Below are positions 1,575 through 8,471 of a stretch of DNA of 18,377 nt, in pieces. Positions within the stretch are counted from its first letter, which is position 1, and every line of letters begins with the position of its first letter. Made by a program: the position numbers and the translations under genes. This DNA is from Promethearchaeota archaeon (GTDB taxonomy: Archaea > Asgardarchaeota > Lokiarchaeia > Sigyniarchaeales > SOKP01): contig JBHLNS010000057.1 in assembly GCA_048941285.1 (NCBI GenBank), positions 1 to 18,377 of the forward strand, in the 5' to 3' direction. The notes under the pieces were generated by a model, which did not search any database, was not told the DNA's origin, and saw only the letters and a list, made by a program, of their open reading frames with translations.

Positions 1575-2636
1575 ATGGAAACAACTCATAAAATATATTT
1601 TAAAGATTCATCTAATATGGCTGAAGTGGATTCAGAGTCTATAGATTTAATAATAACATCGCCTCCATATCCAATGATCGAGATGTGGGATTCATTATTC
1701 TCTTCTTTAAATAGTGAGGTCGATCAAGCCATTGAAGGAGGAAATGATAAGAAAGCTTTTAATCTAATGCATAGAGAATTAGATAAAGTTTGGAAGGAAG
1801 TAACCCGAGTGTTAAAATCAGGAGGAATAGCTTGTATAAATATTGGTGATGCAACGAGAAAAATAGGTCAAAATTTTCAATTATTCCCAAATCACATTAA
1901 AATTGCAAATTTTTTCCACAAAAATAACTATATTGAATTACCTAACATCCTATGGAGAAAACAAACAAATAGTCCAAACAAATTTATGGGTTCTGGCATG
2001 CTTCCACCAAATGCATATGTGACTCTTGAACATGAGTACATTTTACTTTTTAGAAAAGGAGATGCGAAAAGAGAAATGCCACCTAAACTGGAAAGGAGAT
2101 ATCATAGTGCTTTCTTTTGGGAAGAAAGGAATAAATGGTTTTCAGATATCTGGGAGGATATAAAAGGAATTTCCCAGAATATGAAAAGGAAAAACGATAA
2201 TCAAAAAAAAATAAGAGACCGTTCAGCCTCCTATCCCTTAGAATTACCATATCGTTTGATTAATATGTTTTCCTTATATGAAGATATTGTTTTGGATCCA
2301 TTCTGGGGAACAGGAACAACTTCATTAGCTGCAATGATTTCGGGAAGAAATTCAATTGGGTATGAAATTAACTCTAAATTTAAAGATATCTTTAAAGAAA
2401 ATATAGATAACCTTAAAAAATTGAGTCTTGAAGTTAATAATAAAAGAATCAATCAACACATTGATTTTATCAAGGAATACAAGAAAAGATTTAAAGATAT
2501 TAAATATAATTCAGTTCATTATAAATTTCCTGTAGTAACAAAACAAGAAATTGGATTTTTATTATATCTAATAAAAAATTATAGTGAGGATGAGAATAAA
2601 TTTATTCTTAACTATCAAAAATTTGAGTTTAATTAA
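1575..2636 (+). CDS. Site-specific DNA amino-methyltransferase, beta class (N6_N4_Mtase; probably m4C)
   Basis: Catalytic DLIITSPPY is N-terminal and SAM-binding VLDPFWGTGTT is C-terminal, which is the beta-class order. Also HEYILLFRK and GRNSIGYEI. SPPY is typical of N4-cytosine enzymes. Confidence 0.92.
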   Translation: METTHKIYFKDSSNMAEVDSESIDLIITSPPYPMIEMWDSLFSSLNSEVDQAIEGGNDKKAFNLMHRELDKVWKEVTRVLKSGGIACINIGDATRKIGQNFQLFPNHIKIANFFHKNNYIELPNILWRKQTNSPNKFMGSGMLPPNAYVTLEHEYILLFRKGDAKREMPPKLERRYHSAFFWEERNKWFSDIWEDIKGISQNMKRKNDNQKKIRDRSASYPLELPYRLINMFSLYEDIVLDPFWGTGTTSLAAMISGRNSIGYEINSKFKDIFKENIDNLKKLSLEVNNKRINQHIDFIKEYKKRFKDIKYNSVHYKFPVVTKQEIGFLLYLIKNYSEDENKFILNYQKFEFN

Positions 2637-2653: not shown

Positions 2654-2733
2654 AAAATCCTTTCTCGAGCAGAGTTTTCGTCAAATAACTTTCCATATAG
2701 GGCTTTTTTATTTGAGTCATTATTTAGGATTTT
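2654..2733 (-). promoter_or_regulatory. Putative SECIS element (eukaryote/Asgard-type, kink-turn core) in the 3' UTR of the 2734..3654 gene
   Basis: Minus-strand RNA after the UAA: AAAAUCCU-AAAUA-AUGAC-UCAAAUAA-AAAAG-CCCUAUAUGG-AAAG-UUAUUUGA-CGAA-AACUCUGCUCGAGAA-AGGAUUUU. It has an 8-bp helix I, an AUGA/GA core, an 8-bp helix II, and unpaired apical As with a CC/GG mini-stem. Confidence 0.75.
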
Positions 2734-3654
2734 TTACTTACAATCTTCAGCTTGCTGGAGATTAATTTTTATAAAAGCTTCTTCTTGAAGATTACGCTGT
2801 TCTGATTTTACAGATCGGTTTACTTGATGTAAATGTTTCATCGCATCATTTTTTCCTTGCTTGATGTTTTCAATTAGTTGTTCCTTACTCAAACCACCAG
2901 AAATGACGAGAGCTGTTTGAAAGGTATGACCAGGCTCGATAGTCATGAATTCGATCTGTAAGGCAGATAAGATTTCTCCTTTTCCTCTATATAAAGTATT
3001 AGAAAGATTCATTTTAGTATGATCAACTCTAAAATCTTTTGTTAAACATGACTCGTAGTTTGTCGATTTAGAAATGGGTGAAAATCCACCATATAAACCC
3101 GTATCATCATATTGGTAAATTATATCGTTTTCTTCATCATACCCTGACATATCATTGTCATAACCTTCAAGTCCATTTATATCAAAATCAAATACAAAAT
3201 ACATTGAGAAATCTTTCATAGCAAAATCAGAAATGTTTTTTATAGTAAAAAATGTACTGATATACGGTACTTTAGGGGGATTAAAGATGTCCTTGTAAAC
3301 GCGCACAAATTCTTTTTTTTCTAAAGGTATTGATTTGATTTGTTTTTCTTGGACTAATTTTTTTAAATATTCTGTAATATTGAAATCTAAGGTAATTCTG
3401 CTAATTTTTGTCCCAGCTCTTGTATTTACCATATTATATATGGGTGTGGGCTCAATATTTTTTAGAATCACTGGAATCGTACCAATCTTTTTCCCTTCTA
3501 GTTTAAAACTAAACCAAGGGCCAGTTAGTTCTTGTTCACTAAGATATATGAGATATCTGTCTAAATATGTAAGCTCTTTGATTGAAAATCCCATTACATA
3601 TCCACGAGTATTTCAGGTTGCAAGCACATCATGCCAAATAATTTTAAGTACTAT
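2734..3654 (-). CDS. Uncharacterised protein; candidate selenoprotein (in-frame TGA at 3613..3615 read as Sec). The ORF track gives only the 286-aa part 2734..3594
   Basis: Upstream of ATG 3594 the frame reads ATA GTA CTT AAA ATT ATT TGG CAT GAT GTG CTT GCA ACC TGA AAT ACT CGT GGA TAT GTA ATG, i.e. (M)VLKIIWHDVLAT-U-NTRGYVMGFS. GGAGG sits 8 nt before the ATA, and a SECIS-like element follows the stop. The CDS itself is secure; the confidence given is for the extension. Confidence 0.7.
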
Positions 3655-3660
3655 TTTTTA

Positions 3661-3670
3661 AACCTCCTTC
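3661..3670 (-). promoter_or_regulatory. Shine-Dalgarno-like ribosome binding site GAAGGAGGTT
   Basis: GGAGG at 3667..3663 lies 8 nt from the in-frame ATA at 3654 but about 70 nt from ATG 3594. Confidence 0.7.
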
Positions 3671-3757: not shown

Positions 3758-4738
3758 TTAAAGATTTTCTACAACTCTATATGCAATATATAAGAAAGCA
3801 TCATTAACATTCTCACCAGTTAAAGCTGATGTAAGAATATAATGAAACCCAAATTGTTTTGCACTAACCTTTATGTCTTCTTCCTTTATTACAATTTCTT
3901 CTTTTAAATCAGATTTATTTCCAACTAATACAATGGGAATAGTTCTTGATACTGATTTTTTGATTTCATTATACCATTTTTCAATACTTTTTAGATGGTT
4001 TGGCCGAGTTCTATCTATAACTATGAAGGCCGCATTTGCACCGTTATAAAATCTTGCCCTATTCAAATCAAATTGGCTTTGCCCACCAATATCCCAGATA
4101 AGAAAATTCATTTTAGTTTTTTCGCTTAGAAGAACTGTCTTTTTACTTAATTGGACTCCTATTGTACTTATATAATCTTTCTCGAATCTATTTTCCACAA
4201 AACGTCTAATTAAGGATGTTTTGCCCACTTGATAATCTCCACAAAATATTAGTTTATTCGAGTATTCTCCTGTTAAATTAGGCAGTTCTCCTCCTCGAGT
4301 TTTGGATAAAGCTTTTATTATTTCAGGAATTTTTGGTGAAACAAATTGATTTCCAGTTAAAATTAACTCAACCTTAGAAGATATGTGCTCAGAGTATACT
4401 TTCAATTCAATATCGGTTGCTATTTTATCTGCTACTGTAGACAGTATTGAATTTGGGCCCATCGAACTAAATACAAACTTTTTACCTCCTGTTTCAGTGA
4501 TATTAAAGAAACTAGTAGTTGTTCCAAATTCAGTTTTAATTCTATCTATGTATGTATCAAGCATAGCAGAAAGCGCTCCAATAATTGCATCTGATTCTTC
4601 TTCATTTTGTTCTTTAGACTCTGAAGCGATAATAAAACCATTTCTATCACATATGGCTACACCTAAAAGGCCCTCAACTTCATTAAGATAATTATGTAGA
4701 ATTTCATTTAATAGTTCTGTGTTAGGAAGACGTTCCAT
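3758..4738 (-). CDS. Roadblock/LC7 domain fused to a Ras-superfamily (Rab-like) small GTPase
   Basis: N-terminal VEGLLGVAICDRNGFIIAS...IIGALSAML is a roadblock pattern. GTPase motifs: G1 GDYQVGKT, G2 YISTIGV, G3 WDIGGQ, G4 NKSD, G5 TSALTG. No C-terminal prenylation cysteine. Confidence 0.92.
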   Translation of the reverse strand: MERLPNTELLNEILHNYLNEVEGLLGVAICDRNGFIIASESKEQNEEESDAIIGALSAMLDTYIDRIKTEFGTTTSFFNITETGGKKFVFSSMGPNSILSTVADKIATDIELKVYSEHISSKVELILTGNQFVSPKIPEIIKALSKTRGGELPNLTGEYSNKLIFCGDYQVGKTSLIRRFVENRFEKDYISTIGVQLSKKTVLLSEKTKMNFLIWDIGGQSQFDLNRARFYNGANAAFIVIDRTRPNHLKSIEKWYNEIKKSVSRTIPIVLVGNKSDLKEEIVIKEEDIKVSAKQFGFHYILTSALTGENVNDAFLYIAYRVVENL

Positions 4739-5063: not shown

Positions 5064-6977
5064 TTAATCATTTAAAGTTTTCATAAAATCCAATATATAA
5101 TTCCGATTGTTTTCAGAAATCTGATACAAATCAAAAATTAAGAAGTCGATGATCTCTTGGAGATACTCCAATTCCTCAAGGTTTTCTAAAATTAATTTAA
5201 CATTCTCAACTATTTTTTTAACATACTCCTTCTCTTTACTAGAAATTGGAACTTTAATTGGAAAGATTTTTATTTTTTCTATTAAAATTCTTGGAAATAA
5301 TTTTTTATAGGTTCCAAATGATTTAATGAAGTAGTACGAGAAAAGCATTGAATTAAAGAGACCTAATAAATAAAAATTATTAAACTCATCAATAGAAGAT
5401 TTCATAACTCTCAAATTGTAATAAGATTGAGAAGTATATGATAAATTTTTATCATAAGTCGCACAAATTTTATTTTTTTGGCTTAGTTGTCTTATTACTA
5501 TTCGATCTTCATAAAGCTTCATACTTTTATAGTTTATTCCAACTTTAGAAGTATCTATATATTTATATTGAGTTTTTTGATAACGATTTATAGAATATAG
5601 GAATAATTGAAAATTTTCTTTAATAGCATTTGAGGGAATTGACTCGTAAATAATGTTTTCAATATTTTCTTTATTTAAATTTGATTTACAGTGAGGACAT
5701 TTTAGTGATTTTTGAGGAATTGGTGAATATTTATTGCATTTTATACAATATATTATCTTTCCCGTTTTAGTTAGTTCAACACCTCTACCTAAAGCCAATA
5801 TAATATTATATGTTTTGAATAAATCTTTTAATTTTGGAAATTCTGAGTTTAATTGTTTAAGAATCAATATATCCATCTGATTTAAATGAATCAAATATTT
5901 GTAACCCCATGTTTCTAAAATTTGTTGTGGTATTGTATATTCATTTCGATTTGATAATTTTAAGCTAATTTGGTTGTTTTTTCTTTCGAAGATAATACTC
6001 TCCTTTTCTAAAATTAAGATAATATTCGAAACAATAAGGTCACTAAACTTTGGTCCTGTGTGATAAATTTGTTTAATTTTTGTTTTATTATATATATATC
6101 TCCTGAGTATTGAGCGACTTGAAAGAGCTAAAAGTGAATCTGGAACGATAAAGCCTAAAATACCCCCCTGCTTCAAAATTCTTATTCCAATTTCTATAAA
6201 TATCTGATAATAATCATATTGACCATCATTAGTTTCAAAAGCAGACTTTTCAATTATTTCTCTTTGATCTAAGGGAATATCTCTGATAAATAGATATGGA
6301 GGGTTTCCTATTACATAATCATACTCATCTTCAGTATCTAATGTTAATGTATTATTATTTTCTATATTGAATATTGGAAGACGGAAATAAGGCTCAGAAA
6401 ATAAAATTAAATTTAATAATTCAAATAAAGTAAACCGAATATTAATTTGACATAAAATACAAGCAATTGGATTGATATCTATTCCAATAACATTATTTTT
6501 AACTACAGAAATTATAGATTTTGCTTCCTTAACTGTTAATTCAGAAATTTTCTCGTGGTGATAAATTTTAAGAAATCTTTTAATTAAAACTCTAATTGCT
6601 TCAATAATAAAGCTTCCAGAACCACAACTGATATCAATTATTTTTTTTATTTCAATTTGGTTAATGTCATCATAACCTGAAGCTTCTAATATGTATTTAA
6701 CTACTGAAACGGGAGTATAAAATTCACCAAGTTCTTTTTTTTCTTTATGATTTCGCGTTTCTTCATATACTCTACTTATTAGATCAAAATCTGTTACTTT
6801 TAATTCAGAGGAAACATCATCTCTTATGGTTTTCTCGGCATTATTAAACCACCCAAGACTTTCAATTATTCTTTTCAAGAAAATATCACAATTATGCTCA
6901 TTCAAACCAACTTTGTAAAATTGTTTTAAATTTCTTATAACATCTTCTTTTTCCAGATAATTAATAAAATCTTGCAT
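5064..6977 (-). CDS. N6-adenine DNA methyltransferase, gamma class (Eco57I/TaqI-like) with C-terminal target-recognition domain
   Basis: Motifs in gamma order: KELGEFYTP, IIDISCGSGSF, GIDINP, YDYVIGNPPY, LKQGGILGFIVP. The TaqI_C-like tail has RIVIRQ and YLLGLFNSMLFSYYF. The N-terminus is too short for an endonuclease domain. Confidence 0.9.
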   Translation of the reverse strand: MQDFINYLEKEDVIRNLKQFYKVGLNEHNCDIFLKRIIESLGWFNNAEKTIRDDVSSELKVTDFDLISRVYEETRNHKEKKELGEFYTPVSVVKYILEASGYDDINQIEIKKIIDISCGSGSFIIEAIRVLIKRFLKIYHHEKISELTVKEAKSIISVVKNNVIGIDINPIACILCQINIRFTLFELLNLILFSEPYFRLPIFNIENNNTLTLDTEDEYDYVIGNPPYLFIRDIPLDQREIIEKSAFETNDGQYDYYQIFIEIGIRILKQGGILGFIVPDSLLALSSRSILRRYIYNKTKIKQIYHTGPKFSDLIVSNIILILEKESIIFERKNNQISLKLSNRNEYTIPQQILETWGYKYLIHLNQMDILILKQLNSEFPKLKDLFKTYNIILALGRGVELTKTGKIIYCIKCNKYSPIPQKSLKCPHCKSNLNKENIENIIYESIPSNAIKENFQLFLYSINRYQKTQYKYIDTSKVGINYKSMKLYEDRIVIRQLSQKNKICATYDKNLSYTSQSYYNLRVMKSSIDEFNNFYLLGLFNSMLFSYYFIKSFGTYKKLFPRILIEKIKIFPIKVPISSKEKEYVKKIVENVKLILENLEELEYLQEIIDFLIFDLYQISENNRNYILDFMKTLND

Positions 6978-7191: not shown

Positions 7192-8292
7192 ATGATAATT
7201 GATATCTTTCTGATCATAGTTTCATTGATAATTTCTTTTATCGCAGTATCCTTTCTTTATTTCAATCGTGAAAATTTCGGCAGCAAACTTAATGTCTTTT
7301 TAAATAGTCTAATTTATTTATCTCTGGGAATCATCTTTTTCGCATTATTTTTATTATCCACAGAAATTTATTTTGCAGAAGAATTTGCTCTTGGATTATT
7401 CCACCTATCAATAATATCTTGGCTTTTTTCATTAAGTATGTTGAATCTTATTCACAAATATATAATTAATTTTGAAAAGAGCCCAATTTTATCCATACTT
7501 CTATATTCTTTATTGATTGGAACAATTCTAGGGTTATTTTTCATTCCAAATTCAATTACAATTAATCTAAATAATGGATTTTATAGTTTTGATTTTCAGA
7601 ATCATATGCTTCTATATTTGCTCCTCACCTATAATTTTATTATAATTTTTGTAATGTGTTATAATATTGTAAAATTCTACCATAATCTTCGAAATGATAA
7701 ATCAAGAAAAATGTTAAGTATCCTTACCATTGAGTTTTGCGTTATAATTATTTTTTATTCGATTTATATTATTTCGCAAAATCTCATTTTCAAGTATTTT
7801 TATGTTGCTTTTTATTTACTCGGTGCAATTCTAGTTTCCTATTATTTAATCAAAAGCCCTGCTCTTTTTATTGAACTTACTAATAAGATTTATGATTTTA
7901 TAATCTTCCATAGAAGTGGAATCCTCCTGTATTCATATAATTTCGAGACTGGAGAAGAGACTGATGAATCTCTCTTAAAAGGTTCTATTTTGATAGGAAT
8001 TAATCATATTCTTTCTAATTTTATTAATAAAAAAGATCAATTAGGATTAATTAAAATGCAGAATAGAGATATAATATTTGAATATGATAATAATCATGGT
8101 TATGCTCTATTATTAACTATTAATCATAAGAATTCATTCATAGATAAAGCAGTAAGCAAATTTATGACAAAATTCACAGATTTAAATAGAGAAAAATTGA
8201 AAAATTTAACAGGTCTTATTGATGCATCAGAATTTCGAAATGCAAAAGATATAATAACAGAATTTTTTGAACCTTTTATAGTTAAAGATTGA
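7192..8292 (+). CDS. Seven-TM membrane protein with C-terminal longin-like domain
   Basis: About 7 hydrophobic segments in aa 1-220, with a polar loop between TM4 and TM5. The soluble domain IYDFIIFHRSGILLYSYNF...ILIGINHILSNF...DIIFEY...YALLLTI...KAVSKFMTKF fits the longin beta-beta-alpha-beta-beta-beta-alpha-alpha pattern. Confidence 0.72.
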   Translation: MIIDIFLIIVSLIISFIAVSFLYFNRENFGSKLNVFLNSLIYLSLGIIFFALFLLSTEIYFAEEFALGLFHLSIISWLFSLSMLNLIHKYIINFEKSPILSILLYSLLIGTILGLFFIPNSITINLNNGFYSFDFQNHMLLYLLLTYNFIIIFVMCYNIVKFYHNLRNDKSRKMLSILTIEFCVIIIFYSIYIISQNLIFKYFYVAFYLLGAILVSYYLIKSPALFIELTNKIYDFIIFHRSGILLYSYNFETGEETDESLLKGSILIGINHILSNFINKKDQLGLIKMQNRDIIFEYDNNHGYALLLTINHKNSFIDKAVSKFMTKFTDLNREKLKNLTGLIDASEFRNAKDIITEFFEPFIVKD

Positions 8293-8471
8293 ATAGATCA
8301 GACATATGAATTTTTGAAAAAAGAATTCGAAAATGATTAATTTCTTTAAAATGATGTCAGACTTTATCAATAATAAATAAAATTATATTTATGACGATGT
8401 CTTCTATATTCAATAATATACTTGAAATTAATTCAATAATATAAAGTCAATAAAACGCTTGAAATTAATAT

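Follow-up and report, generated by a model that had tools for sequence, protein, structure and literature searches.

A probable selenoprotein of a previously unlisted family in Lokiarchaeia, hidden by an in-frame TGA codon

Main finding

The window analysed in this work is the whole 18,377-nucleotide contig JBHLNS010000057.1 of a Promethearchaeota archaeon (assembly GCA_048941285.1), which is contig C96 of a host genome of 3.55 Mb that is 94% complete. A gene on its minus strand, annotated as encoding a hypothetical protein of 286 residues, very probably encodes a genuine selenoprotein with selenocysteine (Sec) at residue 14, as judged from comparison with its relatives. The protein, with 306 residues, in all probability represents a previously unlisted family restricted to Lokiarchaeia (Promethearchaeota). 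As shown by comparison of the related loci, the ribosome is predicted not to stop at UGA 3615-3613 but to decode it as residue 14 and to continue in frame through the annotated ATG.

The initial annotation of the window had proposed a hidden selenoprotein with Sec at residue 14, a Sec insertion sequence (SECIS) element in the 3′ untranslated region (UTR) and no tie to the listed families, and every test run supported this proposal. The underlying observation, which combines a ribosome-binding site, an extension and a hairpin on one gene, was confirmed as real and far beyond chance.

Organization of the locus

All gene and element coordinates below are window positions, on the minus strand unless marked (+). 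The features of the locus are the following:

3670-3663 (-): Shine-Dalgarno-like GAAGGAGG, with the core GGAGG at 3667-3663; 69 nt 5′ of the annotated ATG and 8 nt 5′ of ATA
3654-3652 (-): proposed start codon ATA (AUA, an Ile codon); conserved codon
3595..3654 (-): N-terminal extension of 20 codons (IVLKIIWHDVLAT-U-NTRGYV), missed by gene callers; variation biased to third positions on both sides of TGA
3615-3613 (-): predicted Sec codon TGA, residue 14; conserved and aligned to Cys in homologues
3594-3592 (-): annotated ATG; the annotated open reading frame (ORF) covers 2734-3594 only, 286 aa
2734..3654 (-): predicted full coding sequence, 306 codons plus TAA (2736-2734), from the frame and the alignment
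2740..2742 (-): codon of the penultimate residue, Cys305, a candidate partner of Sec14; invariant in a 20-sequence alignment
2654..2733 (-): SECIS element, from pattern, fold, alignment and covariance model
3758..4738 (-): gene for a Roadblock-like N-terminus plus a Ras-family GTPase, upstream on the same strand (Pfam)

The frame 5′ of the annotated ATG reads TAA(3660-3658) AAA ATA GTA CTT AAA ATT ATT TGG CAT GAT GTG CTT GCA ACC TGA AAT ACT CGT GGA TAT GTA ATG, and the peptide across the extension is K I V L K I I W H D V L A T TGA N T R G Y V, followed by the annotated ATG. The three signals named in the initial annotation are all present: a strong Shine-Dalgarno site about 70 nt before the annotated ATG (GAAGGAGG, 69 nt upstream), a 20-codon in-frame extension broken solely by TGA 3613..3615, and a hairpin directly 3′ of the stop, which corresponds to the SECIS element at 2654..2733 (-). 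The predicted length of 306 aa with Sec at residue 14 is exact when translation begins at ATA 3654-3652.

Conservation of the TGA codon and of the extension

Relatives were collected by a six-frame search of 60 genomes and by a scan of one genome per species, which gave 80 loci. The two sets cover the same, mutually related species, and the counts given here measure conservation rather than independent events. The 80 loci comprise 76 of Sec type (56-90% identity, from Promethearchaeota metagenome-assembled genomes) and four of Cys type. The six-frame search found the gene in 33/36 congeners, and exactly one in-frame TGA, within an alignment spanning the extension (residues 1-307), occurred in 30 of the 34 genus-level rows, the host genome included. 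Among homologues, the initial annotation had suggested looking for TGA or Cys at this column with conserved coding sequence on both sides, and this is what was found: the TGA codon is kept in 71/71 insert-free Sec-type loci, and Cys occupies the column in 13 loci.

The nucleotide layout shared by the relatives is GGAGGT, 6-9 nt, ATA, GTN, CTN, AAR ... ACN TGA AAY NNN NNN GGA TAY NTN ATG, in which third positions change most. This tendency was quantified by column entropy in the 66 cleanly alignable loci of the 76 of Sec type; the ten omitted were five loci that contain an insert and five affected by an indel, a contig end or a shifted start. Mean entropies at the first, second and third codon positions were 0.66/0.27/1.36 for codons 1-13, 0.88/0.41/1.32 for codons 15-20, and 0.49/0.29/1.21 for the first 20 codons of the body. 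Because variation sits at third codon positions, as in the gene body, the extension is coding on both flanks of the TGA. In the same 66 loci, G18 and Y19 are invariant and align with the GY of the Cys homologues, and M21, the residue of the annotated ATG, is invariant within the Sec-type clade.

Among the matches listed, 120/120 database relatives are 'hypothetical protein' entries of 281-287 aa starting with MGFS. A start of the homologues at MGFS, which according to the initial annotation would speak against the extension, is seen in these database gene calls alone (286 aa), and such starts are artefacts, since gene callers take TGA as a stop.

Sec and Cys forms of the family

Cys-type homologues from other families of the same order have one open frame beginning with M-D-I-x-I-D-Y-E-T-I-C-x-x-C-x-x-x-G-Y-S-F-G-Y, which aligns without gaps to I-V-L-K-I-I-W-H-D-V-L-A-T-U-N-T-R-G-Y-V-M-G-F of the window. 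Because this alignment runs gap-free, the TGA column corresponds to the second Cys of a CxxC motif; the residue at the position of the annotated ATG is Phe in these homologues. CxxC forms occur in 13 loci (nine f2 loci and L137-L140) and include those of Candidatus Lokiarchaeum ossiferum (CP104013.1) and Promethearchaeum syntrophicum MK-D1 (NZ_CP042905.2). The CxxU form, C-x-x-TGA, is carried by three loci of family f4 and one locus of family f3, which read F-D-Y-V-C-x-x-TGA and F-D-P-V-C-K-W-TGA after an initial ATG. Within the clade of the window, L, F, V or I stands at the first Cys position of the motif (66 loci). The lack of a CxxU/UxxC motif pointed out in the initial annotation thus holds for this clade and fails for the family as a whole, in which the site is CxxC or CxxU.

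At the other end of the protein, a Cys is found among the last four residues in 74/75 Sec-type and 4/4 Cys-type loci (78/79), which lends support to the earlier suggestion that the penultimate Cys could be a resolving partner. U/C14 and Cys305 are both invariant among 20 full-length sequences aligned, and the Sec-type body has one or two Cys in total (75 loci). As the first Cys of CxxU was lost in the window's clade, any couple there must be formed by U14 and C305.

The Sec tRNA (tRNA-Sec) scored over the cut-off in all five genomes tested, three with the Cys form (G050, G055 and G044) and two with CxxU (G043 and G041). The idea that the Sec machinery tracks the Sec form of the gene was rejected on this result. 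Since Cys-form and CxxU carriers alike have tRNA-Sec, the choice between Sec and Cys is gene-specific.

The SECIS element

The SECIS begins 16 nt after the stop, with AUGA at 2720-2717, an upper stem at 2716-2708 / 2688-2680 and GA at 2679-2678. The upper stem (CUCAAAUAA / UUAUUUGAC) has eight Watson-Crick pairs plus a C-C at the closing position, and the apical loop AAAAGCCCUAUAUGGAAAG, of 19 nt (2707-2689), starts with AAAAG, ends with AAAG and includes a CC/GG ministem. A lower stem of 8 bp (2733-2726 / 2661-2654) encloses the SECIS core, and an extra small hairpin is formed by CUC(2674-2672)-UGCUC-GAG(2666-2664). This structure is the minimum-energy fold in RNAfold (-13.8 kcal/mol, z = -2.63), and 2/200 shuffles fold equally well.

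RNAalifold recovered the same three helices from 33 aligned UTRs (L014, whose contig ends, was omitted). The main stem is nearly invariant across them, with one C-G to U-A double change, and in the small hairpin two pairs have 5 and 3 double changes, respectively; in 31/33 UTRs the tetranucleotide has UGA at its end, and in two it is AGGA. Two side observations concern this architecture. The main stem UCAAAUAA/UUAUUUGA hardly changes even where protein identity falls to 57%, and the other SECIS stems of the genome differ freely. The small hairpin has the form NNN-UGCUC-NNN and lies, with compensatory changes, between the SECIS core and the lower stem (2664-2674 in the window).

A SECIS is present by either of two patterns in 73 of the 74 Sec-type loci whose 3′ sequence extends to at least 90 nt, with 63 matching the strict pattern and 69 the core-motif pattern; only L114 fits neither. 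Over all 76 Sec-type loci the strict pattern matches 64, and no SECIS pattern was found in the four Cys-type loci (0/4). Genome-wide, a loose version of the pattern gave 19 matches; the reversed genome gave 8 and three Markov simulations 8, 15 and 8, so that the pattern by itself is weak. Of these 19 matches, nine sit -4 to 37 nt after frames with an in-frame TGA, and five of those nine follow confirmed TGA genes, encoding SelD (C39), a Prx-like protein (C1), FlpD/VhuD (C4 and C43) and an HdrA-like protein (C67).

A covariance model was built from seven other SECIS elements of the genome, four of which follow confirmed families. It ranks 2728-2670(-) as the top match in the window, with 20.4 bits and E ~0.02, followed by a match of 15.7 bits. 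This second-best match (8298-8344 (+), E ~0.2) is located 6 nt beyond the TGA that ends ORF 7192-8292, a hydrophobic and probably membrane protein with no Pfam family, and read-through of that TGA adds 15 codons only; the match is probably due to chance.

In the description given in parts of Mariotti et al. 2016 (PMC4989117), the lokiarchaeal element (lokiSECIS) consists of AUGA, a 9-bp stem, an 11-nt loop that starts with adenines and ends with G, usually after A, and then GA or AA; a longer form with an apical ministem is described there for SPS genes. The window element agrees with that description in the AUGA before the stem and the GA after it, and in a loop with an adenine start and an AG end, but it departs from the 9-bp stem and 11-nt loop and is nearer to the SPS type II form (PMC4989117). 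It differs further by the covarying hairpin inside its lower stem.

Sec machinery of the host genome

The initial annotation had made its proposal dependent on tRNA-Sec, SelD, PSTK, SecS and EFSec, and all are represented in the genome, the SelB-like and PSTK-like matches being below their cut-offs. The tRNA-Sec scores 59.4 bits, above the Rfam cut-off, and lies beside SepSecS (376 bits) on contig C52. A full-length SelB/EFSec-like gene is located 4 kb from the tRNA-Sec, a PSTK-like gene is also full-length, and two SelD genes have one in-frame TGA each.

The start codon

Among 70 assessable loci, the codon at the start position is ATA in 63, ATT in 3 and ATC in 2 (68/70), and the remaining two have ATT or ATA one or two codons further 5′, by inspection. 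A motif of the GGAGG/GAGG/AGGA type lies at most 25 nt upstream of the start in 70/71 related loci. In the window (TAA, two codons before) and in many relatives an in-frame stop is found one or two codons 5′ of the ATA, and in L123 and L126 it stands immediately before it. The ATA aligns without gaps with Met1 (ATG) of the Cys-type homologues. By comparison, then, translation must begin at or just after AUA 3654-3652, and we infer that the start is this AUA itself.

Codon 2 is Val with all four third bases (GTA/GTT/GTC/GTG), so no conserved GTG start exists there. The alternative start offered in the initial annotation, GTG 3627, which would place Sec at residue 5, was ruled out: at this position 33 of 66 relatives have an Ile codon and 32 a Val codon, and the third base varies.

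A bulge-helix-bulge insert in related alleles

Six related alleles, not the window itself, carry an insert directly after the TGA. These are the genome loci L078, L079, L086, L088 and L090 and the metagenome contig L167; L078, L079, L088 and L090 are the same loci as L028, L031, L040 and L041. In the five genome loci the inserts measure 28, 29, 31, 31 and 32 nt, none a multiple of three, and the N-terminal peptide and the downstream N..GYVMG stay conserved despite them. Each insert presents a CUUG/CAAG helix of 4 bp, 3-nt bulges (AAU and AAA or AUA) and an inner hairpin whose sequence varies between alleles while its pairing is kept.

Archaeal bulge-helix-bulge (BHB) introns are cut between the second and third bulge nucleotides, as described in sections of Yokobori et al. 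2009 for the cbf5 pre-mRNA of Crenarchaeota (PMC2738675). Virtual splicing after the second bulge nucleotide restored ...A-T-U-N-x-x-G-Y-V-M-G exactly in 5/5 genome loci. The insert resembles the cbf5 intron, as far as that account describes it, in the 4-bp central helix, the two 3-nt bulges and the exact in-frame junction (PMC2738675). It differs in its lokiarchaeal host, its position after the Sec codon of a selenoprotein gene, its length of 28-32 nt and its irregular outer exon-exon helix. The insert is a likely candidate for an mRNA BHB intron in Lokiarchaeia.

In a quick gene tree the five carriers are scattered within the window's clade and do not form one clade, with at least three changes forced by well-supported branches. 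A pattern scan of metagenomes for such inserts returned 29 stretches, of which one is a family member (L167) and 28 are unrelated chance matches. A full-text search on Asgard bulge-helix-bulge introns gave no report of an mRNA intron, and mRNA is not mentioned in a 2026 preprint that deals with tRNA introns of Asgard archaea. Both the BHB-type insert and the conserved AUA start bear on the annotation of Asgard genomes, where non-AUG starts, recoded stops and mRNA introns have to be considered.

As a separate observation, the W-H-D-V codons (GGCAUGAUGU) can pair with the Y-V-M codons (AYGUCAUG) in the window (3595-3636 (-)) and in relatives, the loop enclosing the UGA, with one mismatched pair in the window. 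This pairing may arise by chance from codon constraints or may be the outer helix of a BHB site.

Family, novelty and core

The 306-aa protein matched none of 24,736 Pfam or 18,950 NCBIfam models, and the annotated 286-aa product likewise belongs to no Pfam family, in line with the earlier statement that the protein does not resemble SelD, HdrA, VhuD/VhuU, formate dehydrogenase or peroxiredoxins. No consistent Pfam family emerged over 37 family members, and no thioredoxin-family match was found by Pfam at the sequence level for the protein or for these members. PADLOC returned nothing for the gene or its GTPase pair, and the best hit of a sequence profile search against the PDB (E 0.61) is meaningless. 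The family is small, with 33 clusters at E <= 0.001 among 1.84 billion representatives.

Distant forms include two homologues with an N-terminal CxxCxxC that lack the C-terminal Cys, as if a third N-terminal Cys replaced it; core-only proteins of ~220 aa with neither Cys site; and one 623-aa protein in which the core is followed by an HExxH segment. The most conserved motif of the core is Y-x-x-F-D-F-D-I-x-G...D-x-D...Y-D...Q-Y-D, in which we presume a resemblance to acidic calcium-binding loops.

The survey of Huang et al. 2024, according to its printed methods and results, covered more than 400 Asgard genomes with previously reported families as queries and found seven families (PMC11227280). 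A 2026 review counts, in the portion containing its Table 1, 119 prokaryotic selenoprotein families or subfamilies, 11 of them in archaea, nearly all with an InterPro-type model identifier (PMC13188914); the window protein matches no family model among those of that table. Compared with the published Asgard selenoprotein lists, the family is on none of those printed. Full-text literature searches gave no paper describing it; the supplementary tables of Huang et al. 2024 and Mariotti et al. 2016 were outside their scope and could list the gene under another name.

With the selenoproteins described for Lokiarchaeia in parts of PMC4989117 and PMC11227280 (HdrA, VhuD/FrhD, VhuU/FrhA, Prx-like and SPS/SelD), the window gene shares an in-frame UGA aligned with Cys, a 3′-UTR element tens of nucleotides from the stop, the same machinery and, family-wide, the CxxU context. 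It differs from them in that its protein has no detectable relation to theirs and its Sec lies 14 residues from an AUA start. If the assignment is true, this would be a twelfth archaeal selenoprotein family, Asgard-specific, with 76 species-level loci and no recognisable domain.

The Roadblock-Ras GTPase neighbour

The product of the upstream gene (3758-4738 (-)) matches Pfam Ras (4.3e-40, residues 162-322) and, weakly, the Roadblock-clan family MAPKK1_Int (0.0053, residues 11-46). Such a Roadblock-Ras gene stands immediately 5′ of the Sec- or Cys-type gene in 77/80 loci. All four Cys-type loci, those of L. ossiferum and P. syntrophicum MK-D1 included, have the GTPase neighbour, with 42-44% identity. 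The gap between the GTPase gene and its partner is 24-67 nt in Cys-type loci and about 86-166 nt in Sec-type loci. The GTPase gene and the selenoprotein gene are a conserved two-gene unit.

In MK-D1, GTPase genes are generally located outside operons with regulators, and Roadblock (RB)-GTPase fusions are described in this organism, as reported in passages of Tran et al. 2024 (PMC10933270). Because of this general arrangement, the conserved pair stands out as an exception. The likeness to MglB-MglA, Ragulator-Rag and the Asgard RB-GTPase fusions, as those passages present them, is that the window gene is paired with an RB-GTPase fusion of the MK-D1 kind (PMC10933270). The window protein itself has, by Pfam, none of the Roadblock, longin or TRAPP domains of such regulators. 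This fixed gene pairing provides one of the numerous orphan small GTPases of Asgard archaea with a concrete candidate partner, and biochemistry is feasible now, because Cys-form orthologues exist in both cultured Lokiarchaeia.

The flanks of the unit contain a gene for an N6/N4 DNA methylase (1575-2636 (+)) and a gene for an Eco57I/TaqI-type methyltransferase (5064-6977 (-)), which are syntenic in 44 and 58 of the 80 loci, respectively.

Weighing of the selenoprotein reading

Several points weigh against the selenoprotein reading or its details. AUA is a rare start codon, and a GGAGG-spaced ATA opens one long orphan frame of 176 genome-wide, versus 27/131 for ATG; general use of ATA starts across the genome is not supported by this count (1/176), and the case for the AUA start is therefore made by conservation alone. 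GGAGG-led ATG starts are also few in this genome (27/131 sites), and the combination of a strong ribosome-binding site with a weak start appears specific to the selenoprotein gene. The SelB/EFSec-like match (239.7 bits) is under the bacterial-type cut-off of 242.25, and the PSTK-like match (153.9 bits) is under its cut-off of 290.5. The SECIS element has a loop of 19 nt, against 11 nt in most lokiarchaeal elements, and a C-C mismatch at one position of its stem. The score from the covariance model is modest, its E-value comes from a rough calibration, and three of the seven training elements (C24, C36 and C65) follow unverified TGA-containing frames. The lokiarchaeal SECIS pattern was not found at the f4 CxxU loci, in which a conserved hairpin was seen directly after the stop. 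Rfam has no matching family, with no hit at the gathering score over the window and matches at chance level (E >= 4.9) over 2620-2760. This blank agrees with the statement, in the part of PMC4989117 that concerns earlier models, that existing SECIS models found nothing in Loki.

Proposed mechanism and alternative explanations

Following the established archaeal and eukaryotic Sec decoding, the SECIS would recruit EFSec with Sec-tRNA(Sec) to UGA 3615-3613. Residue conservation suggests that Sec14, the survivor of an ancestral N-terminal CxxC/CxxU, may form with Cys305 a selenylsulfide/selenol-thiol couple that would link the two ends of the protein, and that this couple may gate or catalyse an activity of the core with the acidic YxxFDFDIxG...D.D...YD motif. 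Synteny suggests that the selenoprotein might work with the upstream Roadblock-Ras-like GTPase as a redox-dependent regulator or effector. Taken as a whole, this mechanism of a redox pair plus a GTPase partner is the reading that we prefer, but a tentative one, with the odds against it.

Mammalian thioredoxin reductase, with its mobile C-terminal redox centre, is an example of a CxxU/CxxC site resolved by a distant or C-terminal Cys or Sec. The window family is like it in having a nucleophilic Sec/Cys near one terminus and an invariant Cys on a likely flexible terminal tail, but it has no sequence similarity to it and no flavin or thioredoxin signature.

A more elaborate scheme is that of a Lokiarchaeia-specific redox switch on a eukaryote-like Roadblock-Ras/Rag-type GTPase, in which Sec14-Cys305 would couple redox state to signalling and synthesis would be throttled at the AUA start, at the UGA and, in some species, at the BHB intron. 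We regard it as rather improbable; if it were true, with a spliced BHB intron, this would be the first such mRNA intron outside the crenarchaeal cbf5.

The main alternative to the redox couple is a metal site: the protein would be a genuine selenoprotein whose N-terminal U/C and C-terminal Cys hold Zn, Fe or an Fe-S cluster, with no tie to the GTPase other than co-transcription. The Cys-type forms offer three Cys (CxxC plus the C-terminal one), and the two distant CxxCxxC homologues devoid of a C-terminal Cys fit a three-ligand site. In the window's clade, however, the replacement of the first Cys by L, F, V or I in 66 loci leaves U14 and C305, too few for a cluster, in a Sec-type body that has just one or two Cys (75 loci). 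We regard a metal site as rather improbable.

The remaining explanations concern the reading of the TGA itself. If it were a true stop, a conserved 13-codon upstream ORF (IVLKIIWHDVLAT) would regulate a main ORF starting at ATG 3594, and the 3′ hairpin would be a terminator. Three findings would suit such an arrangement: every database entry, like the gene callers, begins the protein at MGFS (286 aa); M21 does not vary within the Sec-type clade; and in six alleles the two parts are separated by an insert whose length is not a multiple of three. Against it, the six codons from TGA to ATG show the variation of an in-frame coding sequence, G18 and Y19 being invariant, and both flanks align gap-free to one open frame in the Cys homologues, which have Phe at the position of the 'ATG'. 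Moreover, canonical BHB cuts remove the inserts exactly in frame, and the 3′ element, which has SECIS features, is missing at the Cys-type loci. We consider regulation by an upstream ORF very unlikely.

Equally hard to sustain is a reading of the UGA by a near-cognate tRNA (Trp, Cys or Arg), or its suppression at a low level, in place of decoding by Sec-tRNA. The identity of the inserted residue is predicted from sequence, which leaves room for this view. Nevertheless, in several relatives, among them L016, L019, L020 and L038, the same gene ends in a TGA stop, so that TGA does not serve as a sense codon in general. Homologues have Cys at the column, the SECIS co-occurs with TGA and not with the TGC/TGT forms, and the host genome encodes the Sec machinery together with other Sec genes that carry an element of this type. 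A pseudogene, or a TGA due to a sequencing or assembly error, has nothing in its favour beyond the presence of a stop codon and is refuted by the same feature in 71/71 independently assembled insert-free loci with purifying selection on both sides.

Further observations in the genome and in related loci

Two small hydrophobic ORFs of the same genome, C36:38441-38653 (+) and C65:271-501 (-), encode probable membrane proteins of 71 and 77 aa. Both are interrupted by a single in-frame TGA, in the motifs A-U-G-H and G-D-G-U-G-C, and both are followed by a canonical lokiarchaeal SECIS with an 11-nt loop, at 37 and 15 nt from the stop, respectively. Homologues keep the TGA in 1/24 and 9/24 of the congeners searched, respectively, and both ORFs are possible further unlisted selenoproteins. 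With the window family and these two small membrane-protein candidates from one genome, the Asgard selenoproteome appears to be undercounted.

A second AhpC-TSA-type gene, at C40:9168-9542 (-), has one in-frame TGA, and the SECIS pattern had no match there. Near 5591 (-) of contig C24, a frame of 175 codons has two adjacent TGA codons and is followed by a good SECIS; a label of VhuU for this frame was a guess, and the NiFeSe hydrogenase model PF00374 did not match there. Among the related loci, L121 (DATKTW010000123.1), labelled Candidatus Nanopelagicaceae bacterium, carries the lokiarchaeal gene pair and nests among Promethearchaeota on the tree, and it is likely a mis-binned contig.

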